Below, one piece after another: positions 1,636 through 57,909 of a stretch of 57,909 bases of DNA (the first letter of the stretch is position 1; the number at the start of each line of letters is the position of its first letter). The stretch is from Girardia tigrina (taxonomy: Eukaryota): the NCBI GenBank assembly GCA_001938485.1, contig MQRK01197785.1, positions 1 through 57,909 of the forward strand, given 5' to 3'. The position numbers and the translations under genes were made by a program. The notes beneath the pieces were generated by a model, which saw only the letters and a program-made list of their open reading frames with translations, was not told the DNA's origin and did not search any database.

Positions 1636-2624
1636 CTGTTTTTGGAGAAGGAAAAAAAATTATTATTTCTGATGTAAATAATATACATAAATTTTATTTT
1701 TACTCTTTGCTTTTTATTTGTGTATATATATTTGTGTGTAATTGTCTAACAATGTCATAAATTGTTGACATAAAAAACAAAAACAATAGATTCTTTCTTG
1801 ACAATGTCTCCTCAATTTCTTTTACATTAATGAGCCTTAACATGTTTGACTTGAGATATATATATATACAGCTGTGGACAATTGTGTATATTGCAAATGT
1901 TACTTGTTTCAGAAGAATAACAAAACACTTTCACTTATGAAAGATGGGACATAGCACTTGTTGTTTAAGGTACAGTGTCTAAAAGAGGAGAGAAAATTAT
2001 ATTTATTGTTTCAAATAAAGAAACATTCTTTTCGTTTTTCAGTTAAAGCTTTCCTTTTTCTCCAATGAAGAAGACAAATGATTCTGTCTGCGTTGATAAT
2101 TTATTTTCAAAGATAATCCTATAGAAACCTAATGCAAAACACGTTTGATGAAAGAATGACAAAATAAATAAAAGCGTCGAAGAATAATTATAAGCAAGTG
2201 TGTTATATTTGATTAAGTAATTAAGTATATTAAAAGAGAAGACTAAAAGAAATTTAACAAATCAATTTTTTTAGATATTTGAAGAAATGTTCTCTAACAG
2301 TTTGTTTCAGTAATTTGTAAATTTCTTTAAATAAAATAAAGACGTTTTCTAAATTTGGTTTGGTTAAAAAAACTTGATTCGAAAAGTCCTTTTTTTCAAA
2401 TTTCTATATAAAACCATTATATCATTAACATAGAAATATTTAGATTTTTCTAGAAGTCGTCAGAGCATCTTTAAGCTTCTTTTTTTGAACAGAGTAGTTG
2501 ATCATGTAAACCTTTTTTGGAAGAGACCAGAAAGGATGCAGAAATAATTTAGACTACATTATTTTGCCTTAACGAAAATTTTGCCTTCTTTACAAAAATA
2601 AAACCGTTTTTTGAGAAAAAGAAA

Positions 2625-3012
2625 ACTAGTAAATCAAAAAATTTTAATTTTTATATCCATTCTTTATGCAGACAGAACTCTACTTTGCCATCAAAGTTTT
2701 TAAAATTTAAAAAATTTCAATTAAAAAACACATTAAAAATTAATATAAACTACTTATAATTTATAAGTAGATATCTTGCAATTAATATTGTTCGGGAACT
2801 CGGAATTTTCCTTTTTTAGCTATTTTGGGATCTTAAAAAGTTTTTTTCGATCAAATTTTTACATAATCATTGATTATCATCGAGAATGAGTAGGTATATA
2901 AAGTTTGAAGAAAATCGATTGAGTAAAAAGCTTTCAAAAATAGGTTTCTAAATTCCACGGATACACACACATAAATATATATAGAAAGTACGCTAATAAA
3001 AAGAATAGAAAA
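2625..3012 (+). repeat. Dispersed family A (HINE-like: ACTAGTAAATC start, (TA)n, AAGAATGG-like sub-terminal repeat)
   Basis: Alignable copies at 4459-4812(+6056-6120), 10433-10800, 42462-42910, 52725-52805 (partial) and 54900-55166 (reverse). Confidence 0.8.
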
Positions 3013-4458
3013 AAGGCAAAATAAATAAAATTAACCACTTAACAAAGTAAAATAGACATTCCGTAACCAAAATAACTCAAGTGATGCTTAGAAAAGTTTA
3101 AGTCCAAAGCAAATGATTCGCCAAAACCATTAAATTTTAATTTAAATAATAATTTCAGTTAATCATTGTAACGTTTGGATATTTGTACAAAGCTTTATAC
3201 TATGCTAGAATATAGTTTAAAAGAACATTTAAGGATTTAACACAAGATGATTACAAGAGGGTAAATCTATCAGAACCATAGTTTAGAAAGATCTTTGATT
3301 AATTTAATTAAAGTAAAGGCAAATATTTGCAAAGGTTAATCATTGAAAATTCTAAATTATTGCAAAGGCTAAAAAGACGCTAAAGCTAAGATATTTCCGT
3401 TATCCGACTTGAATATATAATAATCTTAGAAAACAATGTCTAGTATGTACGACGAGAGCGTCATAACTTCCCAAAGTTACATACTCTCGTCTTCGTCACT
3501 TATGGACCACCAAACCATCCTTGTTTCCAATTCTGATCGTTTCTGCAAATCTAGTTATTACTGTTTGTTAAGATGAGCGTAATAATTAAACTAAACTTTG
3601 TTTAATAAAATATTAGTCTTAAGTATTAAATTATTTTTACTCGTGTAACTATTCATTTCTGCCCAGATATTCATCTACTCTCTTTTGTTTATGTTTTGTT
3701 TTGCTTTTTCCTGTGACAAAATGATTTCATAGTTATGTTATCTTCAACGTTCGTACATATGTTAATAATAGAAATTGCTTAGACTGCATCCAGTGCCCCA
3801 TGTCAACAACCCATAACTACATGTTGCAATGCATACAGAAAAGGAAAATGCTTGGAATATACATGCATCCCCTACACTATTGTTCAAGATTTTATCAATT
3901 ATTTGGTAAAAGTAAATGGCCGTATTGTCTATTTTAAAGTTTTATAATAATCTTTAATTAAATGTAATACTATTAATATTTGTATTCTTTTACATCAATG
4001 TAGAAGATTATTTCAACCCCTTGACAAATATTTTTTACATTTAGTTGTTCAAAAAGTTTGTGCCGTGCTTTCATTTAGGTAAAAGATTTTTCTAAAGCAA
4101 ATGACTTACAATTTGAATATTCCAATATTTGTAGCCTGGACACCAATGAGAAATTCTGGAGCACAGTTTTTAAAATCCTTTTCCAAAAAACAATAACAAA
4201 ACTCACACAACTGGTTGGAAATGGCTTTAAAAAACCATGTAATAAATGCAAAAGTCTATACAAATCTTATTTATGATGTGATCCTGTTATTATTTAATTG
4301 ACTAGACTTAAATATTTTTGCAGCATATACCTACTGGAAAACCCAATTTATAAATTGTAATCCGAAAGTTATCATAACACCAAAACGAAAAGAATTAAGT
4401 GCCAACAATTAACATTAATGGTACAACTTAAATCAGACAAAACGAAAATCAGCGGCTA

Positions 4459-6055
4459 ACTAGTAAATCAAAAAATTAAATTTTTTATATCCATTCTTTA
4501 TGCAGGCAGAATTCTATTTTACCAACAAAGATTTTAAAATTTAAAAAAATTAACATTTAAAAAATTTTAATTAAAAAAAGAATCAAAATTAATATAAACT
4601 ACTTAGGATTTTAAAGTTAGGATTTATTTTCGGGAACTCGAAATTTTCCGTTTTTTACAATTTTGGGATCTTGAAAAGTTTTTTTCGATCAAAGTTTTAC
4701 ATAATCATTTATTGTCATCGAAAATGAGTAAGTGTGCCAAGTTTGAAGAAAATCGATTGATTAAAAAGACTTCAAAAATAGGTTTCTAAATTCCATGTAT
4801 GTATATATATATATATTAGGGTGGTCGAAAAATAATGGCGGTTTTGGGACACATACTTCAAAGACGTGCAAATTCACAGAAACAAAAGTTTATTAATCAA
4901 AGTATGAACCGTTGGAATCAATAGATTTTTGCCAACGAGAAACAAGTTGTTTTATTCCATCAGCATAAAATGCATCGGTTCTCGAAGCGACGAATTCTTG
5001 GAAGGCATTTTGAGCATCATTTTGGTTTTTGAAAATTTTTTCACGTAGTAAGTTGTACAAATGCCTGAAAAAGTAGAAGTCCATTGGCGAGAGGTCTGGT
5101 GAATATGGTGGATGAAGTAGGGCTTCATAGCCCAACTTATTAAGCTTTTGAGAGTCACTTTTGAAATATGAGGTATAGCGTTATCATGAAGAATGATGGG
5201 ACTTTTTCGATTGACCAATCCCGGACAAAGGGTTTTCAATTTTTTATGCATTTCATCAATTTCATGACAGTACCTCTCCGCTGTGATTGTTTCANNNNNN
5301 NNNNNNNNNNNNNNNNNNNNNNNNNNNNNNNNNNNNNNNNNNNNNNNNNNNNNNNNNNNNNNNNNNNNNNNNNNNNNNNNNNNNNNNNNNNNNNNNNNNN
5401 NNNNNNNNNNNNNNNNNNNNNNNNNNNNNNNNNNNNNNNNNNNNNNNNNNNNNNNNNNNNNNNNNNNNNNNNNNNNNNNNNNNNNNNNNNNNNNNNNNNN
5501 NNNNNNNNNNNNNNNNNNNNNNNNNNNNNNNNNNNNNNNNNNNNNNNNNNNNNNNNNNNNNNNNNNNNNNNNNNNNNNNNNNNNNNNNNNNNNNNNNNNN
5601 NNNNNNNNNNNNNNNNNNNNNNNNNNNNNNNNNNNNNNNNNNNNNNNNNNNNNNNNNNNNNNNNNNNNNNNNNNNNNNNNNNNNNNNNNNNNNNNNNNNN
5701 NNNNNNNNNNNNNNNNNNNNNNNNNNNNNNNNNNNNNNNNNNNNNNNNNNNNNNNNNNNNNNNNNNNNNNNNNNNNNNNNNNNNNNNNNNNNNNNNNNNN
5801 NNNNNNNNNNNNNNNNNNNNNNNNNNNNNNNNNNNNNNNNNNNNNNNNNNNNNNNNNNNNNNNNNNNNNNNNNNNNNNNNNNNNNNNNNNNNNNNNNNNN
5901 NNNNNNNNNNNNNNNNNNNNNNNNNNNNNNNNNNNNNNNNNNNNNNNNNNNNNNNNNNNNNNNNNNNNNNNNNNNNNNNNNNNNNNNNNNNNNNNNNNNN
6001 NNNNNNNNNNNNNNNNNNNNNNNNNNNNNNNNNNNNNNNNNNNNNNNNNNNNNNN

Positions 6056-6094
<39 letters not shown>

Positions 6095-6120
6095 GTGAGC
6101 TAATAAAGGAATGAAAAAAA
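4459..6120 (+). repeat. Family A copy split by a mariner inserted in its (TA)n
   Basis: 5' part 4459-4812; 3' tail GACAGTGAGCTAATAAAGGAATG resumes at 6091. Confidence 0.7.
4815..5294 (-). mobile_element. Mariner (DD34D, Hsmar1/cecropia-like TIR) 3' part; remainder probably in the N gap to 6055
   Basis: HDNA...HPPYSPDLSPMDFYFF...NGSYFD with a frameshift; TIR TTAGGGTGGTCGAAAAATAATGGCGGTTTT; flanked by (TA)n on both sides of the gap. Confidence 0.88.
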
Positions 6121-6741
6121 CTGGCAAATTATGTTTAAAAACCAAAACACACCATTTGTAAACCAAAATTTTTATTTTTTAGTACAATTAATTTCGAAAG
6201 TATAAGCGTCATCGCCAGGTCTCTAGAAAAAATGAACTTTAAATCTGCTTATCTTAAAACGTAAATTTGGTGGAACTCTAATTTTGTAGGTTGAATATAT
6301 TGATTTAAAATTTGATAAATGATACGAGTAAATAAAAAGAAAAAAACTCTATCAATTTATCAATCAAAATAAAACTATTTCCACGGTATTATCCACACTT
6401 TTACAATAGAGGGACAATAAAGATGATGTTCAATCAAAAGAAAATTAACTTGAAAAACATTTCCATCTAGAATTGTTCATCAATCAACATTCTATCAAAA
6501 CATACTTTTACTAAAACATTTTATAAACGTTCTTAAGGAAGTTGAAAACTTTAATTGTTACAATCTATTTTTGTTCCTTTTTAAGTCAATTATCCTTTCA
6601 GAATAGTCTACTTTTTGAGATATTTATGAATTAAACTCTAGTCGTAATTGTCTTTTGACTTTGATAGTGTAATATTAATATAATGAATATTATTCTTATC
6701 TTTTTTGCACTTAAGAAAAAATAAATAAAATAAAAACTAAC

Positions 6742-6939: not shown

Positions 6940-6995
6940 CTAAAGATAATTGTTTTTTATATCTAAATTTATAATCTATGGAAAATTTCACGCAC

Positions 6996-7109
6996 TAATC
7001 TTTCGAAATCTCTTCTTTCCTGGTCTGTACGAGGGTACCCATCAATAAGGAAATGTTTTTTATCTACATTCTTGTTGAGTTCTTTTATGAGAATATCCAA
7101 AACCAAGTC
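6996..7109 (-). CDS. AK5: AK5-like exon 4 (DLVLDILIKELNKNVDKKHFLIDGYPRTDQERRDFERL)
   Basis: Adenylate kinase signature FLIDGYPR; ttcag acceptor and GT donor, 114 bp, phase 0-0. Confidence 0.92.
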
Positions 7110-7469
7110 CTGAAAGAAAATTGTAAAATAATTTAAACTGAAGGAAAATATTCTAAAATCTGAGTCAGTTGTAACCAGAAAGTATTCCAATACAATGGCA
7201 GAGTACTAAAATGTGAAAATAAGCACCATGAAGTCACTTTACCACCGTAAAGAAAAAAGCATCTTAAAAAAATAGAATGTCCACACGGTTTTTTTCGTTT
7301 TGTTATTAGACCTTTTTTCGGGATAAAGAATTATTCAAATTTTTACATTTCTGTGAATCAAGCTCAAAATCTTTATTAATTTCATCCCTTTACGTTTCAG
7401 GATCATTTTTTAGGACTATAGTTTATGTTTAATGACGTATTAACTCTTGTGTGTATTCGAAAATACTAA

Positions 7470-9620: not shown

Positions 9621-10432
9621 TTTATAATAAATTTTACGAACCTTGAATGAAACATCTTCACAATGTCAATGCAACTAACAGCTTTTAAATTTATTTTTTG
9701 CTAAATATACGAAAAGATTTAATGAAAAAAAAACTTTAAAAAATAACCAAATAAAAATTCTTTTAAAAAAAATCAGAAAAAAAGCTTTTGTCCTTTATGC
9801 TTCGTAAGGATAAATTAAGAAGGAAAATTATTTTCTTTGATGTAATTTTATTCACTGAAAATTATTTATCACCTATTGTTGTCAGTGTAAAGGAAATTTA
9901 TCGGATAAACAAAATGGAATTTCTTTGTTTTTCCTCTTAATTAATGGGAATATAATGGGGTTTTGTTTTGAAAAACCGCAAATATGGCAGGTCTGAATCA
10001 GTACAATGGCAATGTAGTTTAGAGATAAAAATAAAATAAAAATTATTATTCTGAGGGAAATACACAGGGAAAATAGTTTACAAAATTACAAGTCTTCTTA
10101 GAGATAATCAAAAACGGAAATATAACATATAATCACATAAATTCTAATTACTTTCGAGATAAAAAGATTTTAAAATAATTATTAGCAACAAAAATCTTGA
10201 TGTTGGTTCATAGGCGCACCATATCTTAAAGGGTTGTCGATCGGGAAACAAAAGGGAAAAATAAAAAAAAATAATATATGGTTTATAATTTTTTTTGTTT
10301 TTTTAATTTTAATTGTTTTATGACTCTTAATATAAAATTAGAAATAAAATTAAATACAATATTTATTTTTACGTGATGTATATTTACAAATAAATAAAAT
10401 AAACGTGAAGTCATAATAAATTAATATTATTA

Positions 10433-10800
10433 ACTAGTAAATCTAAATATAAAATTTTTTATATCCATTCTTTATGCAGACAGAACTCTACTTTGCCAAC
10501 AAAGCTTTAAAAATTTAAAAAATTTAAATTAAAAAAACTACTTATAATTTATAAATAGATGTCTTGCAATTAATATTGTTCGGAAAATCGGAATTTTCCG
10601 TTTTTTTTCCATTTTGGGATCTTAAAAAGTTTTTTTCGATCAAATTTTTACATAATCATTTATTGTCATCGAGAATGAGTAAGTGTGCAAAGTTTGAAGA
10701 AAATCGATTAAGTAAAAAGCCTTCAAAAACAGGATTCTACATTCCATATATATATATATATATATATATAGAAAGTAAACTAATAAAAAGAATGGAAAAA
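10433..10800 (+). repeat. Family A copy
   Basis: High similarity to 2625-3012. Confidence 0.8.
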
Positions 10801-12759: not shown

Positions 12760-13620
12760 ATGAAGGTTATTATTTTTAAAAAAACTCCAAAAACGTCCAC
12801 ACACTTTTGCCAACGCTTGGCTAACTCAATGAAGGCATTTTCAAAGTGGCATTTTCAAAGAAATTCATAAACTACATGCTGCAAATCTTCTTTGGAGGAG
12901 TAATTGTGGCCTCTTAGGACTCGCTTGAGATGGTTAAATAAGAAAAAAATCAGAGTGGAGCTGGTCAAGGCTATAGGGTGGTGTGAGAGCACTATAAGAC
13001 GACAACTCTGAATGGCTGCTATTGAATGACCACTAGTGTAAATTGTCATGTAGGTAGTTTTTTTCTTCTAAGTTTCCGAGTCTGTTGTACAAGATCGGGA
13101 TAGTACGCAGTGTTTAGGCGAACACCAGATTCCGCAAAATCTATGAGAATTACACCACTTGCATCCCGAAAAATTGATGTTCGCATCTTCCTTGAACTGG
13201 TCTCACCTGGCAGTTTCGATTTTTTTGAATCCCATTTTTGACTCAAAAATGTATAGACAGAATGGTGTCTCATCTATTTCTCTAGAAGTGATTCTTCTTT
13301 CATTTTGGATGATTTTCTCCAACTTTTCCGTTATTTTGTTCCTTGATTTCACTAGGCTTTCCAAACTTTTCCATGTTCACCAAACTAGTTCTTTCAGCTT
13401 TAAATAAATTGAACCAGCGTTTTATTGTAGTCGTAGAAGGACTCTCATTACCATAAACACCATTCAGTCCCATCTGGATTTCATCCCGACCTTTACCTTT
13501 CAAAAACAAGAAGCGAATAACAGTGCGGTATTGAACACTTTTAATGTCATTTTCAAAATCACGCAATAAATTTAATAAGAAACAATGACAGACTAAAACA
13601 AACTTGACAAAAGTGATCTA
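12760..13620 (-). mobile_element. Decayed mariner transposon (irritans-like)
   Basis: YRTVIRFLFLKG...TIKRWFNLFK HTH; IFRDASGVILIDF; FFLFNHLKRVLRG; frameshifted across ORFs 13300..13566, 13046..13273 and 12855..13049. Confidence 0.85.
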
Positions 13621-13916
13621 TATATTGTACTTTACTTCTTTAAAGTATTATTTAATTTCAATTCAGATTTTTATATTAGCCTCACTATTTATTTGGTTTT
13701 TTTTCGGACATGCTAATTCATTACGTCTTTCCTAAAGGTAATTGAACGAAAACTTATAAAGCATAATATTACCATCTACCTTGTATTCCTTTATATAAAT
13801 AATAAAGTTAAATTAAAACGAATTAAATTCATTGCTAAAAATAAAAAATTAAAAAAATACAGAAAATTTTAAAAATCGAAAAAAAGAAATATCAATAAAT
13901 AATATAACCAAATGAC

Positions 13917-14179
13917 CTCTGATGCAAAATTGCCTTCATTAATGATATTAACATCGCCCTTCCATTTACTGTTAACATCACGCGCTTCCATCAGAGCTCT
14001 CTCTCGGACTAATTTCCCAATTTCAATATGCACAAATTCTGGGAAATTGATCGACAATTTGTAGCAGTACTCCGATTTCCCGATTCCCGGGCCGCCCTGA
14101 ATTATAACAATCGTCGAGTCTGGAGAAATCTTCAACTGAAAAGATCCTATTTCTGGTAACGGTTCAGGACGGAAATCTT
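13917..14179 (-). CDS. AK5: AK5-like exon 3, P-loop of first AK domain (IVIIQGGPGIGKS)
   Basis: ttgcag acceptor, phase 1 matching exon 2; GGPGxGK P-loop; GAG|GT donor, phase 0. Confidence 0.92.
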
Positions 14180-16916
14180 CTGCAATAACATAATAAATAA
14201 TCTAGTTCTTTATGCGAAAATTATTGTCATTTCCATCAAGAAAATATCTTTTTACGACTTCACAAAATCAGATTTTAAATTATTTCTATTCACATACATT
14301 TCAAATAATTTATTATTATAATAAAAAAATATTTTTAAATAAAATTAATTATAGTAAATTAAAAAAGACTAGTAAATTACAAAATACAATTAATAAATTA
14401 GTTTAATAATAAATTAATTCAGAACAATTTACATTTACTGTTCAAGTGACGTAAAACTTATTTTACTGTTTTTATACACTCGCCGTGTTGTTATATGTTC
14501 GGGTGGAATTTAGTGATCGATTTTAAAGTATATTCCCTTTTAGATAGAGCTTTGAAATTTGGAACAAAGCTCAGAATTACATGATAATACAATATTTGAA
14601 CAAATAGAGACGGATAAGCCGAATTTCGGATCTGTTTCGATTAATGTTGGTTTCTTTTACAAAGTTTATTTAAAAAAATATGGCAATATAAAAGCTCTTT
14701 TTATACACGTGATTATTTTTAATGTATATACAATAATATCTGATTCTTCATATGTGGTAAAAACGAATAACTTAAGGTTTTTGTAAAAATACTATCCTAA
14801 ATTTATAAAACAGTACACGGGGGTCCGTAAAACACTAAAAAAATATTTTGTATTATTTTAGTGTCGACACACGTATAATTTCGAATTAATTCATTATTTT
14901 TAAAAGAAAATAATATTCCTTTTATTGTTTTCATGTTTCAAATTTTTTGATAAATTTTATTAAATTCTTTCATTTTCTTTTATTTTGAAAAATTGTATGA
15001 TGAATATTTGGAATTTTTGATGTTTTATGTTTGAATGTTGTATGTTGATTTGGAATTGAGTCTCTCCTACCCAGATGGATGATTAATATTTTAATTCTTA
15101 TTATCTAAAAATATGTAATGTTTAAATTTATTTCTAAATTAATAATTTTAATTATTATTTGTGAAATAATTCTGAAATAAGTATTTTAACAATTTATAAA
15201 ATCAGATAATAAGATTAAAGTCATTAATTAATTAGAAGTAATGTAATCTTACGAAAGTTTTGACAAAGATTTTCCTGAGAACAACCAAACTTGTAATATT
15301 AATAAAAATATGAAAAGTTATTTGATGTTCTTCATTATGTACTTACATCTCTTATCCTCTTTTAATAAACATTTTACGTTTTAATACTTTATTAGGATTT
15401 ATTATCTATGGTCATGTATGTTCTTAATCTCGTATTACCAGCAATAATTTATTTACTGGAGCATAAAACGAAATCAAATTGTGATATTATCAAAATAAAG
15501 TTGGTTAAAATGATATAATATTTTATGTAATATATTTTTGAGAACAGCACATTCTCACAGTTAAAGAAATTCATTTATGTCACATTCAGAATGGTTCATC
15601 ATCCTTCTTGATTGATTAATGATAAGGTATCCGAAAAGATCAAAAGTGAAAGATAAAAATTATTTCAATTATCTTTGTTAGAAATGATGGGCACTCCATC
15701 ATCAAAACCAATCGAAGCCATATAAAAACTAATTTAGCTCTAAAAATTTATTTACACGAAAAATTCCACTTTCAACGCACTGAAGCTAAAAAATTAATTC
15801 TACATAAACAAACAAATTTTTTTAATTATAATTAACTTTTATAATCAGTTAATTATAAATTTTAATTTGAGGAACAATCTTTTTCTAAAATTTGTTAATG
15901 TCAAACCGGAATATTCTAATTTTAATTTATTCTTAATTTACTTATAAAATTTAATTTAACTAATTATTTTATTCTTCATCTAATTATTAAATTTAACTCT
16001 ATCTTATTTAAATTTTAATTTACTTAATTTATTCTTATTTCTTTATTCTTATATTCTCGTCAATGTTATGCATATAATCTCATCTTGCATTTCCACTCTA
16101 ACTCACAAATTTTCTTCTGATGACTTACTCCCTAACAATCTTAATTATAGAAACCAGCAAGAAGACAAAAATATGAACTAATCATTGTAAATATTTTAGT
16201 AAATCTAAAATCTCTGATTACTTTCTAAAATATTCTAAAAATTTCAATATACTAGACTTGTTTTTTGATAAATCAAAACAATTGAAGTTGACTCAATAAA
16301 CAGCGAATTTGTGGCCAAATTCTTCTTCTACTCCTATCTTCCAAATCATGAACATCTTACCTTTATTGCAAAGTCTTCATCGAATATGATAAAATAGATA
16401 GGAATAATCACTTAGAGAACTTCAAAAATATTCTTCTTGAATTAAATAAAAGGAAACAAATATAAAAGCTTATAAAATTATTAAAACAAATATATAAAAA
16501 TATGATCATTCAATGAATCAAATGATATTTAATTTTCAAAATAATCATCTTTCATCACATAAATTTACAAAAAAATTAAATTTATGTTTAATTTATTTAA
16601 TTTATAAAATTTATTTTAATTATTATTAAATTTACTGAATAATTATTGTATCAAAATATTTGTATTTTTTAATTGCAATGTTATTTAAAACTATAAATTA
16701 ATTTTTTTTTGAAATTTAAAATGACGTGAAATTACAAAAAACAATTACAATATCCAAGACATCAATCAAGCATGGCAAATATTCAAATACAAAATATAAA
16801 ACATTCCAAAATATTCATTAAAAGCATTACTAATTTTAATAAAACAATAAAAATTGATTAGTTCCTGATGAGATGACTGTCTTATATATATATATATATA
16901 TAACTCATATATATAT

Positions 16917-18447: not shown

Positions 18448-18479
18448 TTGATACACAAATAGTAGCAACTTTCAATCAC

Positions 18480-18642
18480 CTTTCGGTGTGGGAGCGATCG
18501 GCGGTAGAGGCGTTCTCTTGGCCTCGAGAAACATGTCCCAATGAACGGCATTCACTCCTTGTTTCTTGATTCTTTCTAAACACTCTTGCAAATAATCGAT
18601 GTAATCTGTCGGTCGATGGTACATCAGTCCCGTCATGAGACA
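18480..18642 (-). CDS. AK5: AK5-like exon 2 (CLMTGLMYHRPTDYIDYLQECLERIKKQGVNAVHWDMFLEAKRTPLPPIAPTPK), Dpy-30/RIIa-like domain
   Basis: AG acceptor at 18644-18643, GT donor at 18479; frame differs from the supplied ORF 18476..18739; similar to human AK5 SLLNGLMCSKPEDPVEYLESCLQKVK...VKWDTF...LPP. Confidence 0.9.
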
Positions 18643-18889: not shown

Positions 18890-19359
18890 ATAAATATTAT
18901 CTATGCGTTTAAACAAATCGTTCTTAATTATTAAATGTTTGATAAATATTTTTTTGGAAAATATTAAATCTTTGCGGAAACTTTATTGAAACTATAGTAA
19001 ATTAGGTTTTTATTTTTTTATTATTAGGAAAATGTGATGATCTATTTCATCATGTTGTGTGGCACGGAAAATTTGTGTAATAAATAATATAGGTCTTTGT
19101 GATGTGCAAAATTTTTTAATTTAAAATATGAACTTACATTTAACTTGATAATGTATTACATAACACCACTTTATATAAAAAAGGCAAGCTAGCACAAATT
19201 GTTTAGTTAATTATTTATTTAACACTGAAAATATAATTACTTGACACTATATAGAAGAATAAAAGAAAGAAGAAATTTTGAATTTATTAAGAACACAAAT
19301 TGGATTTTCAATATATTTATTGATATCACAATTTGAATTGATTATAGATTTATTTAAAG

Positions 19360-19830
19360 TTATAAATAATAAATCTCCAACGCCATTGGGATTGTGTTCG
19401 GATCTCATTTATCAATATACATGTAATGGGTGTAACGCCACATACATTGGAGAGACTTCAGGTCATCTCTGTAAGAGAATCCAGGAACACAGTCTCAATG
19501 AAGGTGGAAGTAACATTGCAGGACATAGAAGACATTGTAAAGGAGATATAACTTCACAACACTTTAAAATTCTGTGTACTCAATTTAAAAATTATTGGGA
19601 GAGAGTGACATGTGAAGCGTTATATATAAGATCTTTGAATCCTAATATTACCGTTCAAACTGCACTCTCTACAACTTTGTTGAGAGTTTTTAAATGATGT
19701 ACTGATTACGTATTGATTACATAATCCTTAACTGCACTATATAAGTAAATTTCGTTTGAAAAATCATTTGTTCTGACGATGACGGTTAAACCGTCGAAAT
19801 TTATAAATACTTTCAATTGGCTTTCCAATT
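19360..19830 (+). mobile_element. Penelope-like element 3' end: GIY-YIG endonuclease and pLTR
   Basis: LIYQYTCNGCNATYIGETSGHLCKRIQEH...EALYIRSLNPNI is a Penelope GIY-YIG domain. Confidence 0.88.
19765..19810 (+). ncRNA. Minimal type I hammerhead ribozyme-like motif of the Penelope pLTR
   Basis: CTGACGA (19773) - stem II GACGG/TTAAA/CCGTC - GAAA (19796), then palindromic AAATTT; stem I pairing is imperfect. Confidence 0.6.
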
Positions 19831-21686: not shown

Positions 21687-23575
21687 GTCACTTTTTAAAA
21701 AAAAATTTTAAAAATGAAATGAGCCGATCGGCTCGTTAGTTTTAGTGGGCCGACGTGTCGATTGAGTAACTATGCCCAAATCAGAGTCGACTTCAGTCGA
21801 CTATCGCTGGGGAAATTAATGGGCAATTAAGCCCGAAGCTGAGGTAATTTAATTTGAATTAATGAGCAATTAAGCCCAAAATAAATTAAATTAATTATTA
21901 AATTTATGGGTAATTAAACCCAATTAAAATAAACAAAAATTATAAATTTTAAATTATAAAAATTTATAAATTATAAATTTTAATTTTTAAACTTTTAATT
22001 TTTTTTATATATTAACAAAATGTTTCGGGTATAAATACCCCTAAATTTTTCACTATTGTTACGCAAAAAATAAATCTAAGCAAAATTTATTTTAAAAAAT
22101 TTGATATTGAAAAATTTATGAATTATATTTTGGAGTCCTCCGTCGTTAGTTATATATTGTCCTATTCCGAGAGAATTTTGTGATTCAATTGAATAAAGTT
22201 TTAAATCCGATTTCTTTTGAGTTTTTACTGTTATTTGAATTTGAAAACTAATCTCAGACGAGATTCATTTAAATTGAAACCTCAAGAGAGCGTTAAACAA
22301 TTTGATAAGTTCAATAAAGTTGGAAGAACCTTTTGAAAGGGAGTCAAATCATTACAATTTGAAAGTGTGTTTTATAGTAATTGAAGATAACTTGATTTCG
22401 AATACCCCACAATATATTTATTATATACATATTTATAATACGGTTAAATTTAAAAATTGTAAAACTCCTAAAAAAAGAACTTTGTTCAAAAAATTAAAAA
22501 AACACATTTTTTTATAATAAATTTTATGAACTCAAATTTTGATGAGGTTTGCGCTGCAAACAGTTTTTCTAACATGGCGACCAAAACCTTGGAGATCCTC
22601 CTATCGCGATCTGTCCCAGATCGATTCAAGAAAGGAGAAGATATCGAAATTTTCATTTCCAAATACCGTAGATTCTTCGAGTTAACGCAGACCAAAGAAA
22701 ATGTAAAAACTTTTATGGTGAAAACTCTGCTAGACGATGAGGCCATCAAAGATTATGAGGATGTCGATGACGGCGTGAAGAATTTCGAAGATCAATTGCG
22801 ACAAGCGTTTTCCAAGAAGAGTTCCCGATTTGAAGACCTGGCAGAAATTCTGGAATACCGGAGAGGTTCTGAATCAGTTGAAGACTACTTTAAGACTGTG
22901 GCATAATTGGCCAATAAATTAGCCGCATACAATTGGGACCAAGCCGAATTAGAGAAGGAGATACTATTGCACTGTTCCAGTGATAAAGAGATCCTAAAGG
23001 AAGTTGAGATGAGAGATTAAAATGAGATTACGGATATAAAAAAATCGATGACAAAAATGGACAAGATACAAAAGAAATATGATCATGTCAATGCAGTGAA
23101 AGACGATTGAATCCATGTACAATCCAGAAGAAACAAGACACAATCTGGAATTTAAGGATTTGAAACGACATTGAATTACAACAACAAGAGAAGCACACAA
23201 CTGACAGTGAGAAATTTTGAAATGAAGATTTACAATCATGAAGGCGTATAGAATCAAGATGGTGCTGGTCCTGCAATTTAATGGGACACATAAGCAGGAA
23301 CTGCAGCAAAAGATTACCCGTCACCTGCCATGCTTGCAGAACACAGGGCCATATCAGAAGAAATTGTCCAAATCGGAAATGTAACCGATGTGCAGCCAAT
23401 GGCCATAGGAGAGAAAATTGCTATACGAATATGAGGAGAAGACATTTGGCCAATAATCAAAGAGAAACGGGAAGACTTGATGCCACTGCCACAGCTGGAA
23501 GAACTTGGAACAACAACAACTCAAACCGAGGAGATAGCCGACAAATACCGACTCAAAACAGACCCAACCAACTGT
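21687..23575 (+). mobile_element. LTR retrotransposon remnant: LTR-like region and pseudogenised gag with three CCHC zinc knuckles
   Basis: gag from ATG 22574 (MATKTLEILL...) with stops and frameshifts; CWSCNLMGHISRNC, CHACRTQGHIRRNC, CNRCAANGHRRENC; TATAAATA ~22029 and AATAAA 22192; no pol seen. Confidence 0.75.
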
Positions 23576-23967
23576 CCCGACCCTCTCGAGCATAAACATT
23601 TTTGAAAGCTCTTGAGCCCCAAGTGGCTATTAAGGATCAGCCACAACCCAGCGTCCGTTTTAATATTCATTTGTATTTATTTATATAATGGGTCGGACGT
23701 CTCTTCTCGCTCGACATCTGCCTGACAGTGCCGAGTTTGAAGGACCTTCAGGTTGCGGAAAAAATTTCGTCCAGAATAGTCCTAGAACCATTTATTAATC
23801 ACTTACAACAAAATGGGATTCTTATAAACGTCAGCTTGTGTAAATGGAATTTTTAACTATCATTGTTATTATCAAAGTTAATTAATCACGATTCGACTAT
23901 TCTTAACACAATATAAATCATTTATAAAATCATCATTTTATTAAGTTATTAAAATAACATCTGATTG

Positions 23968-24076
23968 TTTACATTTTCTTTGGTCTGCGTTAACTCGAAG
24001 AATCTACGGTATTTGGAAATGAAAATTTCGATATCTTCTCCTTTCTTGAATCGATCTGGGACAGATCGCGATAGGA
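23968..24076 (-). repeat. Perfect 109-bp inverted copy of gag segment 22599-22707
   Basis: Base-by-base reverse-complement identity; ATTGTTT at both junctions (23964-23970 and 24077-24083). Confidence 0.92.
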
Positions 24077-29728: not shown

Positions 29729-31061
29729 CGTGGTTGAAGCATTAAGTCCCCGGACTAAGTATACAAGAAAAATCATAGGCATTTCATATATATTCTACAA
29801 GTAATAACAAACATGTAAAGGTTTAATTCTCAATGTAAGAACCATTATTGGTCATGCACTTCTCCCAGCGTACCACTAATTCCGAAAAGGCATCTTTGGA
29901 GAAGTTTAAGTCACATTCAGCAAAGAAATTCATAACTGCACCTCTCAATTCTTCATGGGATTTAACGTTTTTGCCACGAATCGCCTTCTTCAGGTGCCGG
30001 AATAACCAAAAATCACTTGGTGCCAGGTCATGACTGTATGGAGGATGACGTACGAGGTTGAAACCTCCATCATCAATAGCCGCTATGGAAAGGTCACTTT
30101 TGTGAATTGGTGCGTTGTCTTGCAATAGCCACAGTGGTGAGCCTCTAGGCTTCCTACACAGTGATCTGGTTTCAGCAACAAGTGAGACATAGTTTCAGTT
30201 CCATATTTCAATTCCATAAACATATTCAGTTTCACTGTTTTGTCTACGAAATCCAGTTTTGTGACACCATCACCATCCCAAAATACAGTCAGCATAAGAC
30301 ATCGCCGATAGCTTGTCCCGGACCTCATTTTCAGTGCTAGTTTTTCATTTGGAAGGTGCCATTCTGAAGATTCTCTTTTGCTCTCGGGTACTTAGAGGCT
30401 TAGCGGTGTCTCATGTACAGTGACAATGTTAGATAGATATCGTTGTCCATGTTCTTGCCACAAATCCTGGTTTTGTTGAGAACACTGCAAACGTGCCTCG
30501 CACATCTCTCTCGACAGAAATCGTGGCACAAGCGAGATGCCAGCTTCCTTATTCCAAGGGATTTCAACACCTCACATGCTTTCCCTTCACTGATGTTCAG
30601 GCTAGCTCCAAGAGCCTTTACAGTGATTTTTCTCTCTGTTTTGATGATTTCCTCGCAACGCTTCTCTAATTTGTCTTGATCGATTTCCACTGGTCGTCGT
30701 GGTCTCTTCATCAAAAGCAGTTGTCGTTCCACGTTTAAACTGGGCAATCCAATCATAAACTGTCGCTTTAGAGAGACAATTTTCCCATAAACATCCCTTA
30801 ACTGCTTGATAATTTCCTGGCTGTCTACCCTTCGCAGCACAAGAAATTTAATCACACTGGGATACTCAACAGGATTCATTTGGAAAAATGACGAAATGTG
30901 TGAAATTTTGTTTCCATGCCTGTAGAACAAGTAAACACAATGATGCAATAAAAAAATTGCACTTTCATTACCTATAGATATTATAGTTTAATACCCCAAA
31001 AATTCACTAAATTATATTTAATGCTTTCTATCTATTCCGGATAATTAATGCATCAACCACG
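29729..31061 (-). mobile_element. Full-length but frameshifted mariner transposon (1333 bp) with TIRs and TA target duplication
   Basis: TIRs CGTGGTTGAAGCATTAAG.../...AATTAATGCATCAACCACG with TA on both sides; MLTVFWD, QDNAPIH, HPPYSHDLAPSDFWLF motifs. Confidence 0.92.
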
Positions 31062-42461: not shown

Positions 42462-42910
42462 ACTAGTAAATCACCAAAGAAAATTTAAATTCAATCTTTA
42501 TGCAGACATTCTTTGCCAAACAAAATTTTAATAAAAAATATTAAAAAAACACAGTAAAAAATTAAAAAATAATGTTGACCAAGTTGAGCTTGGCCCACAT
42601 AAAGCGTCGATATAAAAAATTTTTTTTATGATTTACTAGTTAGACTTTAAATCGGTTTACTGGACTTTATTTATTTTTTTGCGTATTATAAACTACTTAT
42701 AATTTATAAGTAGATCTTTTTATGCTAATATTTTTCAGGAACTGCTGTTTTGTTCCAATTTTGAAACCTTAAAAAGTTTTTTTGATCAACTTTTCACATT
42801 ATCATTTATTGACAAGGAAAATGAGTAAATGTGCAAAGTTTGGAGAAAATTGATTTAGTAAATGACCTTCAAAAATAGCTTTCTAAATTTCATGGACATA
42901 TATATATATA
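42462..42910 (+). repeat. Family A copy retaining an internal hairpin and inverted repeat
   Basis: ACTAGTAAATCA at 42462, its inverse TGATTTACTAGT at ~42628, hairpin CCAAG-TTGAG-CTTGG at ~42579. Confidence 0.7.
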
Positions 42911-43779
42911 TTATATGATTTATTATATTATTTATATTATTATATGATTTGTTTAATAACGAGTTTTTCAAAGAAGAATTTCAAATGGTAAAAAAATGTT
43001 ATCAAATATGTTGTGAGATTTTCTCAAAGATGTACAATTTTTTTCCGTTTCTCACATGTTACTAATTTTGACTAAGTGTTGTAACAATTTCCCTGACAGA
43101 AAAATATTGTTGACTAATGGAAAAAACGACTTAAATGAATTTCTATCAAACTATTCGATGAAAAAGATAATGATTTTTATTAATACAGTTTGTGATTACA
43201 CCATGGTTCTTGATGTACACAGACTATTTTAGTCTTAAAAATGTTTAATTTTTTATGTCAAAATAACTTTATTTGTAAAGGATTTAAGTTGTAATTCAAA
43301 AAGGATTTAATATCTCCCAACGAATAAGAATAATTATATTATTTTTATTATAAGAGGTAAGGTAAGAAAACAATTATCGACTGGGATTATTATTTTGATA
43401 AATTTTAAAACAAAACATTTTAATATATTATCTGATTTTAGCAATCAGAAATTAAATGAATATTGCCAATTTCTATAATTTTCGTTATATTTTTAAAATA
43501 TAATTAATATCTAACTCACTATCAAGCTAAGCAAAAACCTCAAAATATATTCACATATATTAAAAAAAATATATTTATTCTTTTCAGTTACTATTTTTTT
43601 ATTAAAGGAAAGATCCGAATGTAGCACTTATGTAATTATCCACATATTTGACTAACAAAATCCTGGGGAAACTCCTAGGTACAACCCCCATCAATAAATT
43701 CTTTTTCAATTTTTTTGTATATCAATATTTTGAAATGATTTATTATTATTTTCCATCAAACAGAATCTTACAACTAATA

Positions 43780-44994: not shown

Positions 44995-45680
44995 TTAACC
45001 CATTCACTACCAAAGACCCGTATATGGGTTTACGGCTTATAACTTTTGAACGAAGAGGAATTTTTTAATGCGGTTTTTTTCTAAATATTACTATTAAATT
45101 TTCTAGTCCAGCTCTCTCGCTCTCTAGTCCAACTCTATTCAATATATTGCATCAGATCAAAACTGGAACACGTGGGACAGTGAGAAAAAATCGTAAAGGA
45201 TTGCCAAAATTCACTGGAAAATCACGAAAAGGAGATGTTCAATGGTTTTTGTCTTAAGCTCTTCTAGCAATGAAATGGAAAGACAAACGAGATGTCTACA
45301 TGTTATCAATGGTAAATAGTACAAATTTCTTGAACAGTAGAAAAATTGATAGAATAAACGGAACAGAAATTATGAAGCCCGCTCTAGTCATATTCGCAAA
45401 AAAATGGGAGCTTTTGATGAAACTGACATGCAGATGTCATTCACTGCTTCAATTAGGAAAACTTTGAAGTGGTATAAAAAATTATTCTTTCATATGACGG
45501 ATATGACGACATTCAATTCGTATATAGCATACCGAATGAAGCACAATGTACAGCTTACTCAGTTCAAATTGCTTTTGGTTAGAGAAATACTTCAGAGATA
45601 GGGTCTAAAAATTGACTAAATATTGACTAAAAATTGATTAAAAATTCAAAAAACGGCGGGAACTTATTTCTCAACCTAAT
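44995..45680 (+). mobile_element. Internally deleted piggyBac (PGBD4-like) element
   Basis: TTAA|CCCATT left end at 44995; GTVRKNRKGLP, KWKDKRDVYMLS, MGAFDETD...KWYKKLFFH...NSYIAY. Confidence 0.85.
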
Positions 45681-52772: not shown

Positions 52773-54899
52773 TATATAGAAAGTAAGTTAATAAAAAAAA
52801 TGGCAAAATTGTTAGTAAAAAATTTTAGCATTAAAGTGTTGTTAATTTTTTTAAAGTTACTTATTAATTTAAAATACAATATTACTATAATTTATTAAGT
52901 GTTTTTATAAAATGTTTTAATGTAAAAAGATTTTCATGAGTAAATTTCAGTTTTTCAAAGTAATAAAAGTTATTTAGTTTAATATATTACTACAATTTTA
53001 AAATATAAATATTAGTATTTTAAATGTATTATTTTACCATCAGAATTATGACAAATATTCTGTGTTAGATACAGGCTATCATTTAATTTTGTACGTTTAA
53101 AATTTGTTCTATTAATGGATGATCAAAGTCATGAATTTTAGTGAATTAATAAATAATTACTTTCACCATTTTAGTATTAAATAAAGTTTCAAGTTTTGAA
53201 GTTATATATATTTGAATAACTTTTTTTATATTATTAATATTTATTTGAAATATTTTCTTTTTGAAAACAATAAATTAATAAAAACAATTTAATGCAACAT
53301 AGTTTCTTTTCCTTATAGATGTTTACTTATTCATTTTGTTTATATCCATAAGTAATGTACTTCATTTAGACCGTATATATTTTATTTATTATTACCTACA
53401 AAATACAAAAAATATTTATAAAAGAATATCATATATAATTTAACATTTATTTTTCACAATTTTTAATGGAAAATTTAATAATTTTCGCATGAAAAATGGG
53501 CGATCTTGGTGTGAACTTGTCGTTGTTTATGTAACTCTCATGTTTGTAATAAATTAAAAACCTAAATGCAACCATATATAAACTGATTTTACATTCATTT
53601 AGTTTTTCAATGGGTCACACTTCTTTATAAAATTAGTTTCTTCGTTTTGAAAATCTGAAATCTTTAATTACAATTGATTAAAAAACAAAACTCATTATAA
53701 TAAGTTAGTTAAGATTTTATCTCACCAAATAATTCATTTGGAAAATTCAAATTTCATAATTTGATTTTAAAAATTAAAAACAACTAAATTCGAAATACCC
53801 AAACACGATATAAATGCAACTAACATTAAAAAATAGAAATTTTATAATCTAATGATAATTTATTGAAAATATTTCTTAGTTAGAATGATAAAATATAGCG
53901 ACACTTCCTTTATAAAATATGTGAATTATTGATGCTGGCTATCCAGAATTCTGGTACATTATATTCAATAAAAGAATGGAGTTTATTATTTTATCATAAT
54001 GAATTCCGTCTCTGAATTAACGAAACTTTCTAAAGGTATATTTAGTTAGTTTTTTAACTAATTTCTAAAATATACCTAATAGTATGTTTAAAACAAGCAA
54101 TGAATGACTTAGGTCTTTTATGGATTTAACATTAGTTTTCTTAAGAAAGGACAAAGATGTTAAAGTAAATTTTAAAAATTTAGCTGACTTTTTAGGAAAG
54201 GTTTTAAAGAACAAGACAGAATGTGTACTTCTATCAATTTTGTAACAGTAGAAAGTCGCAAATATTTTTGTTTATCCATTTTGTCAATTAGTTTTTCAAA
54301 GAAAACTTTCAGCAACTTTTTAAATACGGATATTTTACTAAATATATTACTATTTTAATAACGTATTTAGAAATTTTTAAAATTAGTAGCCTTTAATTAT
54401 AGGGATTTTCGAGTAAATTCATAATTTTTACAAGCAATTTAATGACAAAAAATAAAATTTTTTACTTATAATTAATATACGTTGATATGTCAATCAACAT
54501 TTGTTTTAGTTCCGTGACAATTTCGTAAAGACAATTGCATAAATCAAAATTTATAACTTAAAAATGGATAATTTTAAGGGATAACCTTAACCCTAATGCC
54601 TAACCTCTACACAATTGTGTATTACATAATTATATTTCCGTAATTATCTGGTCATAAAAGCACTTTTAAACTTAAAATGCATTTAATAAAAGTGATCATT
54701 TCAAATATTTTAACAATCTAAGCAACACAAATCATTTCTTGTACCTTGAAAAAATGGTGGAACCGTTATTCAAACGTGATAAATTCTCAAAGAAGATACT
54801 TTTGTTTGTCTCGTAGAATTTTGAAAGCACAATTAACTTCAAGCTCCTCCCATAATATCAAAATATCGACGCTGACATCTATTTCACCTAACTGGATCA

Positions 54900-55166
54900 T
54901 ATATATATATATATGTATCCATGGAATTTAGAAACCTGTTTTTGAAGCCTTTTACTCAATCGATTTTCTTCAAACTTTGCACAGTTACTCATTCGATGAC
55001 AATAAATGTTTATGTAAAAATTTGATCGAAAAAAACTTATTAAGATTCCAAAATTGGAAAAAAAACGGAAAATTCAGAGTTCCCGAACAATATTAATTGC
55101 AATATATTTACTTATAAATTATAAGTTGTTTATATAAAAAAAAATTTAATTTTTTGATTTACTAGT
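54900..55166 (-). repeat. Family A copy, reverse orientation
   Basis: Reverse complement of the family A core, ending GATTTACTAGT. Confidence 0.8.
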
Positions 55167-56598
55167 TATTTAAAAAATCTTAAAGTACTTTTGATTCCCC
55201 CTAATAAAACTAAGAAACAAATTATATCATTATTTATTTTAAATTAATTAATAAAAAATTTTAAAATAATTCAAAAATTATCAAAGTATATTTTAAAATA
55301 AAATACAGCATTAAATTGAAACAAAAGACTTTACAGGCATATAAATTTATATTATACAATGTATAATTAACATTTAACAATTTTTTTTAATTTTGTGATT
55401 TATTTTTGTAATTTCTTTGAATAATTTTAAATAAATAGAGGATATAATTTGAATATTATAGTAAAAATTTTTTATCACTATTTATTTTAAATTATTCAAG
55501 GAAATTACATAAATAAAGAACAAAACATAAAAAAGAAATATAGAAAACAATAAGTTTTTAATTAAGATATGAAAACTCTATAAACAACATAAATTATACC
55601 ATTCAAAACATCATATCAACAACAATTCCTCACAATTTCAAAAAACAATGTGGCAGTGATAGTGAAAGTAAATCACATCCTTTAACAATCAATAATATAT
55701 ATATCAGCTATAAATATTATTCTATATTAGCTATACCAATTATTCTTTCTGTATATTCTCCATAAAGCACTGTTAACTTAACTAGAGTATTAAAAGTTCG
55801 GTAAATGCATCCAGGAAGAAAATGTTATTTTTCTTTGCAAATCAGTCTTCAACAAACTCTTGGATGTGATGACCACCATTACAATTTTTTCTATGCTCTT
55901 CCTTTTCAAGTATGTAAATAAATAAATGTTCGAAGGATACATTTTAGAGCTATAATGTAGACAAACAAGAGAATTGAAGTCGTAGTGTCAACAAGCAACC
56001 GAATTAGAGAGTTCCTTACTTTTTTATATCTTTTTTCTGTCTATATTGGATGGGTAATGAAAAATCCCTTTGACATGAAATTGATATGAATAACATTTCT
56101 TTGATTTCATAACACAGACAGCATCAAATAATTCAATGCGAAAGTCTGGATTTCTAATTCGCCGAGGTTTTCACCTATATCTGGTCACTCTTTTGAGTCA
56201 CACTTGATATTTTATAAATAGCGAGTCTGATTATTTATCTCCTCAGTAAAAATGTTAATATAAACTGGTCACCATAACTGTCAAAAAGTCCATGTTGGCA
56301 GCCGTGCATTGTACACATTGTTGTCTCATTCATGATGTAAAAATATTTATAATAAATAACCGGATAATAAATAATAATATACATTCATATATACATACAT
56401 TTATATCATTGCTTGTTTTGTTTGAAGATTTTTATTAAGTATCAAGTTAAATAAAGTTTATAGAAAAGATTAAGTAAAATAAAAATATTTTTTTCGATCT
56501 TAATTTAAGGATTAAATGAAGTATTATGTTGTTTTGAGACCGAAATTTAAAAAGTATTTTAAAAGAATTATCTTGTTTTTAAGTTAAATTCAATTAAG

Positions 56599-56772
56599 AT
56601 TTAATTCGTTCTGTCGGCAAGGTTAGTGAAAAGGAAATGGATTGTGTTATAACATCACCGAACGGAAGCCGTTTAATTGATCCGGATTATTATTTTCTTT
56701 CCGAAAACTCCCAATCTACTCCATATATTGTCGAGTTCATTCCTCGCCAATCTCAAACAATTCATTCCAAAG
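56599..56772 (+). CDS. Probable internal exon of a PDE9-like cGMP phosphodiesterase N-terminus ((D)LIRSVGKVSEKEMDCVITSPNGSRLIDPDYYFLSENSQSTPYIVEFIPRQSQTIHSK)
   Basis: GC-richer open frame ending in an AAG|GTAAAT donor; IDP...NS..TPY.V resembles the PDE9A N-terminal IDPTMPANSERTPYKV as recalled; the acceptor (aag) is weak. Confidence 0.45.
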
Positions 56773-57299
56773 GTAAATTTTTAAATATATATATTTTTTA
56801 AATAATAGAAATCTACATATTCACATTCAGTTAGATGTATATTTAAGATGCTTACACGTTCTTAAGTTGTCAAACTTTAAAGTTTTCAAACACTGTCAAA
56901 AGACTCTTTAAAATCAATATTTTGGGTAAACCTCTAAATCAACAGAGTCCAGCTTTTTCTATGAAGATATGAATAAAAGTATAAGTGTTTGCATTCATGA
57001 TGATAAATATTGAAAAAAATTTATTCAAGAATATTCCATCATGTTAATATCTTTCTGTCGTAGAATACAGCAGAAAATATTTTTATTATGTTTTAAAATT
57101 TCATTAACAGATTTGAAAAGGTTTTTTATTGCAAAAAGCACAAAAATGAAATATTATATATATAATGATTGAATTAATTAAGATATTTCTGAAATCTTTA
57201 TTTCCGTGTTCTATTTAACAGAAACTTCACATAAATTTCCTTCCAAATAAGTCGTGAGACTAATATAGAAAGACTTAAGATATCAACACCACTTTTTAT

Positions 57300-57632
57300 T
57301 TAGAGCAAGCATGGTAAATAGGCATCATTTCTCAAAATAATTTCCATGTGCACTGACACAATTTTCCCAGCGAATAACGAGGTTTCAAAAAGTGGGTTTA
57401 AAGAATTCTGGAGGTTTTTCTCCAGGAAAACTGTTCACAGCAGCTCTCAAATCCTGTTTGTTGGCAAACACCTGGCACCGCAGATGCTTCTTAAGATGGT
57501 TAAACAGGAAAAAATCATAGTGAGCCAAATTGGGGCTGTATGGTAGATGAGGGAGCAAATCGACCCCACAACGCTCAATTGTGGCCATGGAAACGCTGCT
57601 GGTGTAGATTGGAGCATTATCGTGTAAAGATA
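57300..57632 (-). mobile_element. Mariner transposase C-terminal fragment, truncated at a GC-rich insertion
   Basis: LHDNAPIY...HLPYSPNLAHYDFFLFNHLKKHLR. Confidence 0.85.
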
Positions 57633-57634
57633 TA

Positions 57635-57909
57635 CTGTATGAGTAGGGGAAAAATGAGAGTTCTGGACCACCCCCCCCGGGGGGGGTGTAACTAGTTACC
57701 GTGGTTGCCATGGCAACGGTCGCGGTTACCATGGCAACGGTCGCGGTTACCATGACAACGGTCGCGATCACCATAGCAACGGTCGCGGTTACCATAGCAA
57801 CGGTCGCGATCACCTTGGCAACGCTTCCGATTGGCCGCCCGGTTCCCTAGCAACGGTCGCGATCACCTTGGCCTAGGCAGCAACGCTTCTGATTGGTCGA
57901 CGGTTCCCT
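57635..57909. repeat. GC-rich element with a C8G8 palindrome and a 21-bp minisatellite of RFX X-box motifs; continues past the window end
   Basis: GTTGCCATGGCAAC at 57704 and variants at 57725, 57746, 57767, 57788, 57809, 57842; GATTGG at ~57829 and ~57891. Confidence 0.85.

Follow-up and report, generated by a model that had tools for sequence, protein, structure and literature searches.

An RFX-type X-box array in a GC-rich block that likely ends a second mobile element beside a mariner remnant in Girardia tigrina

The locus and its neighbours

We analysed a stretch of 57,909 nucleotides from Girardia tigrina (contig MQRK01197785.1, positions 1 to 57,909 of the forward strand), which we call the window. 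Its minus strand carries exons of an adenylate kinase 5-like gene (18475-18642, 13872-14201 and 6972-7205); a search with the exon at 18475-18642 gave three hits, all of them trematode proteins, at 64-71% identity. Repeats of several kinds are also present. A decayed Gypsy-like remnant has zinc knuckles at 23242-23592, and the start of its gag-like frame forms a 109-bp perfect inverted duplication (22599-22707 and 23968-24076). An unclassified dispersed repeat of 250-390 bp occurs in five copies that are 75-89% alike (2624-3013, 4457-4816, 10432-10800, 42673-42919 and 54899-55154), and a MITE-like imperfect palindrome of 152 bp (80%) lies at 55383-55534. Four more Tc1/mariner remnants, a GIY-YIG (Penelope-like) fragment and a piggyBac fragment are found at 1-850, 4893-6178, 12774-13617, 29823-30987, 19263-19694 and 45258-45598.

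The subject of this report is the block that makes up the last ~280 bp of the window, together with its immediate surroundings. The features there are as follows.

56601..56768, plus strand: part of a host coding exon (phmmer match to P0005)
57328..57627, minus strand: 3′ third of a decayed mariner transposase gene, amino acids 247-346 (tblastn with P0001)
57628..57635, no strand: ambiguous junction, either new element already (junction inside a minus-strand T-run) or mariner codons with a 1-base indel
57636..57668, plus strand: terminal segment with TGT at its start, plus strand purine-rich
57669..57688, no strand: perfect 20-bp palindrome on a C8/G8 run, either a rolling-circle 3′ stem-loop or a C-run and polypurine tract before TGTAA (57687)
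57688..57699, no strand: perfect 12-bp palindrome, readable either as a back-to-back pair of X-box half-sites or as a palindromic subTIR of Helentron type; it holds CTAG then T
57697..57822, plus strand: six 21-bp units, each a 7-bp spacer and an X-box-like 14-mer
57823..57909, plus strand: longer units of 32 and 30 bp, the next one cut at the scaffold end

The host coding segment lies ~0.9 kb upstream of the block and matches P0005 (unnamed, 70 aa) at 64% identity (E 5.6e-13). An earlier note, made from the letters of this DNA, had called it a putative PDE9-like exon. The segment is coding, yet Pfam assigned it no family and neither a PDB search (best E 0.16) nor Atlas gave a family for P0005, which leaves the PDE9 label without support. 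One search on host exons returned no match. A GT donor follows the exon on its 3′ side, so the mariner fragment and the block likely lie within an intron.

The mariner fragment adjoins the block, as had been noted, and is 85% identical to P0001 over 100 aa. It has one stop, no frameshift and at least 19 base changes in 100 codons. The gene is cut just ahead of its LHDNAP motif, and similarity ends at L247 (57627). Three further mariner codons (F-Y-L) can be read from the 8 bases that follow only with a 1-base indel and two mismatches, and a fit as good was obtained in 9% of 100,000 random 12-mer trials. We therefore place the junction either within the T-run, at 57628/9, or just ahead of TGT, at 57635/6, which puts the left edge somewhere between 57628 and 57636. 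Arrival of the block by insertion is plausible, with its other end and any target-site duplication beyond the window.

The composition of the block differs sharply from that of its surroundings: positions 57701-57909 are 60% GC and contain 25 CpG, versus 11-42% GC across 57 1-kb bins of the window, in agreement with the earlier description of a GC-rich block in AT-rich DNA. The G8 at 57679-57686 is the sole plus-strand G-run of at least 6 in the window, and no GC-rich hairpin with arms of at least 8 was found in 1-56000. Beyond the two palindromes, the six X-box-like 14-mers start at 57704, 57725, 57746, 57767, 57788 and 57809, a period of exactly 21 bp, and both their positions and their letters agree with those first reported. 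Within the longer units, GATTGG occurs at 57829 and 57891, 62 bp apart; RFX half-sites end at 57854 and 57884, and CCCTAGCAAC occupies 57845-57854. Unit length rises inward from the end, from 9 to 21, 30-32 and 62 bp.

We found neither a TATA box nor a poly(A) signal in the block. A 153-aa frame across it was considered as a gene and rejected, since it consists of repeats read through into the mariner; a plus-strand frame of 19 codons at 57636-57695 is too short to assess. Rfam gave two weak matches, far under the gathering score, which we took as palindrome artefacts. The block is CpG-rich and non-coding, interrupts a mariner gene and holds the scaffold end, and it is likely the terminus of a second mobile element. 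On this point our reading of the letters sides with the earlier note, which had proposed a mobile element.

RFX-type motifs and their occurrence elsewhere

The RFX consensus is given as GTNRCC-N0-3-RGYAAC (PMC3414849). Three of the six units (57704, 57725 and 57788) match it in full. Two of the others retain the right half-site (RGYAAC) only, and the third has a mismatch in that half-site. None of the six has lost the CAAC end of the right half-site, which also occurs, with new spacers, in the longer units; genuine X-boxes often have one strong half-site (PMC3414849). When a pattern is fitted to the six units, it picks out 6 sites in the block, 0 in the remaining 57.6 kb and no more than one in any of 5000 dinucleotide-shuffled versions of the block. 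As the copies arose by tandem duplication, these counts speak for one amplified motif, not for six independent sites. We regard the RFX/CCAAT identity of the motifs as likely to hold. The description of the units as X-boxes holds in full for the three that fit the whole consensus and with qualification for the other three.

To see where such motifs occur elsewhere, we scanned for two nearby X-boxes. The scan returned 117 metagenome loci, with ~370 estimated across the whole collection; once the motifs are masked, the 117 resolve into 81 unrelated sequence families, as ascertained by the search, with doublet spacings of 15-44 bp. Pfam matches were obtained in 12 of the 20 loci with long frames that were scanned, mostly to eukaryote-type genes or mobile elements. 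Doublets in prokaryote genomes are rare (10 stretches in 596 Gb), a comparison that leaves the greater number of tandem repeats in eukaryotes uncorrected. Outside its repeats, the block had no match among 119 loci, and the exact unit was absent from viral contigs, metagenomes and prokaryote genomes. The G-run/TGTAAC/X-box pattern likewise had no match in viral contigs, and BLAST of plasmids and phages returned none to the block. Generic scans of viral contigs gave 2 and 16 loci, nearly all of them phage or giant-virus repeats and many coding, and were set aside. A sequencing-run search with 56400-57909 listed 20 runs with parts of this stretch: two DNA runs from one study had shares of 0.79 and 0.61 and the rest at most 0.24, figures in which block and mariner are not separable and which we set aside as evidence.

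We describe some of these loci (labelled L) in more detail. An 18-bp X-box array at 652-1070 of L038 is the central repeat of a HINE-like family, to which L014 and L092 also belong; L038 has a 12-bp inverted pair, a microsatellite, a 3′ hairpin and a T-run. L046 is a Maverick-like contig with an integrase and an IVa2-type ATPase; its end (5400-5888) is an RFX half-site array with one full X-box and a TATA box, and the integrase had no relatives in viral contigs. Members of a piggyBac family (L028 10001-10050, L043 2527-2576 and L063) have a perfect X-box in the interval that separates their transposase gene from the terminal repeat. L041 carries, at 346-745, eleven X-boxes spaced every 21 bp and then three GATTGG units; the order of units is as in the window and the sequence is otherwise different. 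We also considered the X-box units of L060 as MULE TIRs and rejected this: the MULE arms are at 1475-1515 and 6645-6685, and the units lie outside them.

The 21-bp period, two helical turns, had been taken as a sign of helical phasing. Among 37 X-box clusters, 27 are regular arrays with modal periods of 9-44 bp, two of them at 21 and two at 42. We gave each family one vote and counted a spacing as in phase when it was within 1 bp of a multiple of 10.5. By this measure 27 of 81 families were in phase versus 25.8% expected (p=0.08), which is no clear enrichment, with a slight excess at 20-22 bp (18 of 81 families). As doublets occur at spacings of all kinds and in-phase spacings are not clearly enriched, the 21-bp period looks ordinary. 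Helical phasing is not required.

A second expectation, that substitutions should spare the X-box, fared no better. In the window, copies differ from the unit at 9 of 84 X-box positions versus 0 of 37 spacer positions. In 15 other arrays, which are partly dependent (L014, L038 and L092 are one family, and L106 is counted twice), differences were found at 90 of 1000 X-box positions (9.0%) versus 71 of 862 spacer positions (8.2%), or 8 versus 7 arrays. Units matched by the search were removed for this test, and four of 19 arrays (L008, L023, one of L103, and L108) were dropped for having too few unascertained positions. Short-period arrays are homogenised, which weakens the test. For the CCAAT box, we found no enrichment near X-box doublets generally (2.3 versus 2.0 per kb).

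What kind of element the block may belong to

Our weighting of the possible classes is a judgement based on the terminal motifs and on how abundant and active LTR elements are in planarians. Our tentative preference, which we hold at rather less than an even chance, is that the block is the start (U3) of the LTR of an LTR retrotransposon, with the motifs as the element's own RFX/NF-Y enhancer. What counts for this is the TGT at the candidate junction at 57636 and the G8 run directly before TGTAA at 57687. Gypsy LTRs are described as starting with TGTNR (PMC2836005); TGTAA at 57687 fits this, and TGTAT at 57636 fits TG only. A BEL element in L043 has the same order of C-run, G-run and TGT behind its pol gene, and planarian LTR elements are reported to be abundant and transcribed tissue-specifically (PMC8532177, PMC6431247). 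Against it, a second LTR, a PBS, a coding region (gag-pol) and a target-site duplication, of 4-6 bp in Gypsy/BEL elements, are all absent from the window, which ends at 57909. Each candidate start also has a cost. An LTR starting at 57687 would leave only 51-58 bp of internal sequence, so an additional deletion would be needed; one starting at 57636 would require a 1-base indel in the mariner, and TGTAT misfits TGTNR. Of 54 G-runs of at least 7 in the metagenome loci, three have TGT after them, and given this background the G-run/TGT signal is modest. A PPT-like match was present in one of 37 X-box clusters of other loci, that one in a Helentron-type family. The perfect palindrome with 10-bp arms is better explained by a rolling-circle end than by an LTR.

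Such an end is possible, if doubtful. The block would then be the minus-strand 3′ end of a Helentron-type rolling-circle element (HINE) in the mariner T-run, with the X-box array as its central repeat, or else the plus-strand 3′ end of a canonical Helitron (hairpin, CTAG then T) in a composite element. HINE ends are described as having a palindromic subTIR of 12-15 bp at 38-60 bp from the 3′ end, a stem-loop at 8-35 bp, T-rich targets and central repeats (PMC4067079). The 12-bp palindrome of the block is 52-60 bp from the junction (60 bp from the T-run junction), a GC-rich palindrome with 10-bp arms is present, and protein similarity stops exactly at the T-run (57628-57626, minus strand), with the junction at 57628 or 57636. 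L038, of the same family as L014 and L092, shares that anatomy and has an 18-bp X-box array. With the junction at 57628, however, the stem-loop lies 41 bp away, beyond the described 8-35 bp, and it falls within that range (33 bp) only for a junction at 57636. The 12-bp palindrome, which is readable as two X-box half-sites, is unlike all 15 subTIRs in supplement S7 of PMC4067079, and the 2013 distribution list in supplement S8 of the same paper names no flatworm. A HINE-type microsatellite lies within 500 bp in only 6 of the 117 X-box loci, and for the plus-strand Helitron variant the 5′ TC end is missing at the junction. Slightly more doubtful is a DNA element with long TIRs, the outer part of one of which would form the block; candidates are MULE/foldback, Tc1/pogo-like elements after TA, Ginger, Academ (whose elements start with TAG) and Maverick, and the palindromic units would be read by the transposase, by RFX or by both. 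The inward increase in unit length is consistent with this, as are the L046 contig, where these half-sites form a terminal array that includes a TATA box, and the piggyBac family of L028 and L043 with an X-box near its end. Some TcMar TIRs also begin CYGTAT after TA (PMC3014272), as at 57633-57640. But the C8/G8 palindrome is left unexplained, and the individual classes encounter difficulties of their own. For Ginger2, the target RTATAY is present, but its register is wrong for a 4-bp duplication. Kolobok elements are described with a TTAA target-site duplication and an RR terminus (PMC9587614), and the flank here is GTAA. The Maverick end motifs (AGT)2, (AG)3 and (AC)3A, which were defined on vertebrate elements (PMC8097293), are not found, the letters at 57642 being AGTAGG; nor is a mariner-derived 6-bp duplication, as 57636-57641, read in the F-Y-L register, is five changes away from the mariner C-D codons. 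On these two counts we dropped Maverick as the leading class.

The remaining explanations do without an intact element end or give the array to the host. Had one chance X-box been amplified in a decayed fragment as a neutral minisatellite, the motif would have no function, and the failure to spare X-box positions and the three off-consensus units would be expected. We consider this improbable: CAAC survives in every unit and reappears in the longer units with new spacers, and the motif recurs in 81 unrelated families, although these were ascertained by search. A chimeric assembly at the junction, or a foreign origin of the block, seems very unlikely. The block occupies the final 280 bp of a scaffold with gaps, sits beside a repeat and has a very different composition, but there is no N gap at the junction, and the searches of plasmids, phages, prokaryote genomes, metagenomes and viral contigs for the block or its exact unit came back empty. 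We give least weight of all to a host-side cassette kept for ciliary expression of nearby genes or for RFX titration, which we hold to be highly improbable. Element-borne sites are reported to rewire hosts elsewhere, as with Helitron HSEs (PMC6927752) and DINE-1 MSL sites (PMC4067079), but here a single copy is seen, the host gene has no family assignment and the motif shows no sign of selection. Fly Rfx targets, moreover, are described as usually having a single X-box near the start site (PMC3414849).

A putative enhancer and its likeness to known systems

Taking the LTR reading as our tentative preference, we propose that the motifs at the end of the element recruit host RFX and NF-Y as its own enhancer. 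Slippage or template switching may have multiplied one X-box unit, first into the six copies of 21 bp and then into units of 62 bp that include a CCAAT box; what would matter is how many sites there are, and the 21-bp period need not. The element would benefit from transcription in RFX-rich ciliated or flagellated cells and in NF-Y-dependent male germ cells, with new copies inherited. Any effect on a host gene would be a by-product, and the array most likely serves the element and not the host. There are precedents for parts of this scheme. An RFX3 site is reported as needed for the full activity of one HERV-K LTR (PMC6102855), and the ERV-9 LTR enhancer as built by NF-Y (PMC10968565). Three tandem X-box variants drive a reporter, often weakly, in ciliated neurons of worms (bioRxiv 2021.02.03.429678), and planarian spermatogonial stem cells are described as maintained by NF-YB (PMC4909293). 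Against an enhancer stands the finding that motif positions are no better kept than spacers, in the window as in the 15 other arrays.

The single locus, a cut-off element end, matters little; the wider recurrence, in at least 81 families and several element classes, could matter. It is conceivable, though we are inclined to doubt it, that animal mobile elements of unrelated classes (LTR, Helentron, Maverick, piggyBac, Academ and foldback) converged on multimerised RFX sites at their ends, here with NF-Y sites added, and so exploit the cilium and sperm-flagellum programme for male germ-line expression. If so, the element in the window would belong to an undescribed animal-wide strategy and would offer a route for the spread of RFX enhancers. 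Elements with arrays of host-factor sites are already known (Helitron HSEs, PMC6927752; DINE-1 MSL sites, PMC4067079), and no paper in the limited library that we searched describes arrays of RFX sites at the ends of invertebrate transposons. Binding of the arrays by RFX would account for the access of such elements to ciliated and germ cells, a point open to direct test by RNAi in planarians. For practical purposes, searches for invertebrate ciliary genes by their X-boxes will also pick up repeats as contaminants.

Among known systems, the MHC class II X/Y module had been named as a counterpart, and the words CCTAGCAAC and CTGATTGG are indeed common to both. MHC-II promoters have the order X1-X2-Y with ~20-bp spacing and an X2/CRE site, and MHC-II and CIITA are vertebrate. 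In the window, the gap between half-site and GATTGG is 6 bp and there is no CRE-like X2, so we see a resemblance only. With the terminal repeats of Maverick/Polinton elements, as in L046, the block shares a CCCTAGCAAC/CCATAGCAAC half-site array at the element end, but it differs in lacking the published end motifs and the mariner-derived 6-bp duplication. HINE and DINE-1 non-autonomous Helentrons have in common with it a GC stem-loop, a 12-bp palindrome near a candidate T-run junction and central tandem repeats; the stem-loop of the window is farther from the end than published (measured from 57628), its candidate subTIR is unlike those listed, and the window stops before a 5′ end. The Caenorhabditis Helitrons with HSE arrays likewise carry many host-factor sites on a mobile element, and for them binding and the rewiring of host genes are reported as demonstrated (PMC6927752), whereas for the array described here RFX binding is putative. 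Closest to the LTR reading are the U3 enhancers of LTRs such as ERV-9, with NF-Y, and the HERV-K LTR at 3q12.3, with its RFX3 site, in which host-factor sites including CCAAT boxes are likewise found at the end of a mobile element (PMC10968565, PMC6102855). Those are vertebrate retroviruses with a single RFX site, whereas the putative LTR of the window has six or more RFX-like sites.
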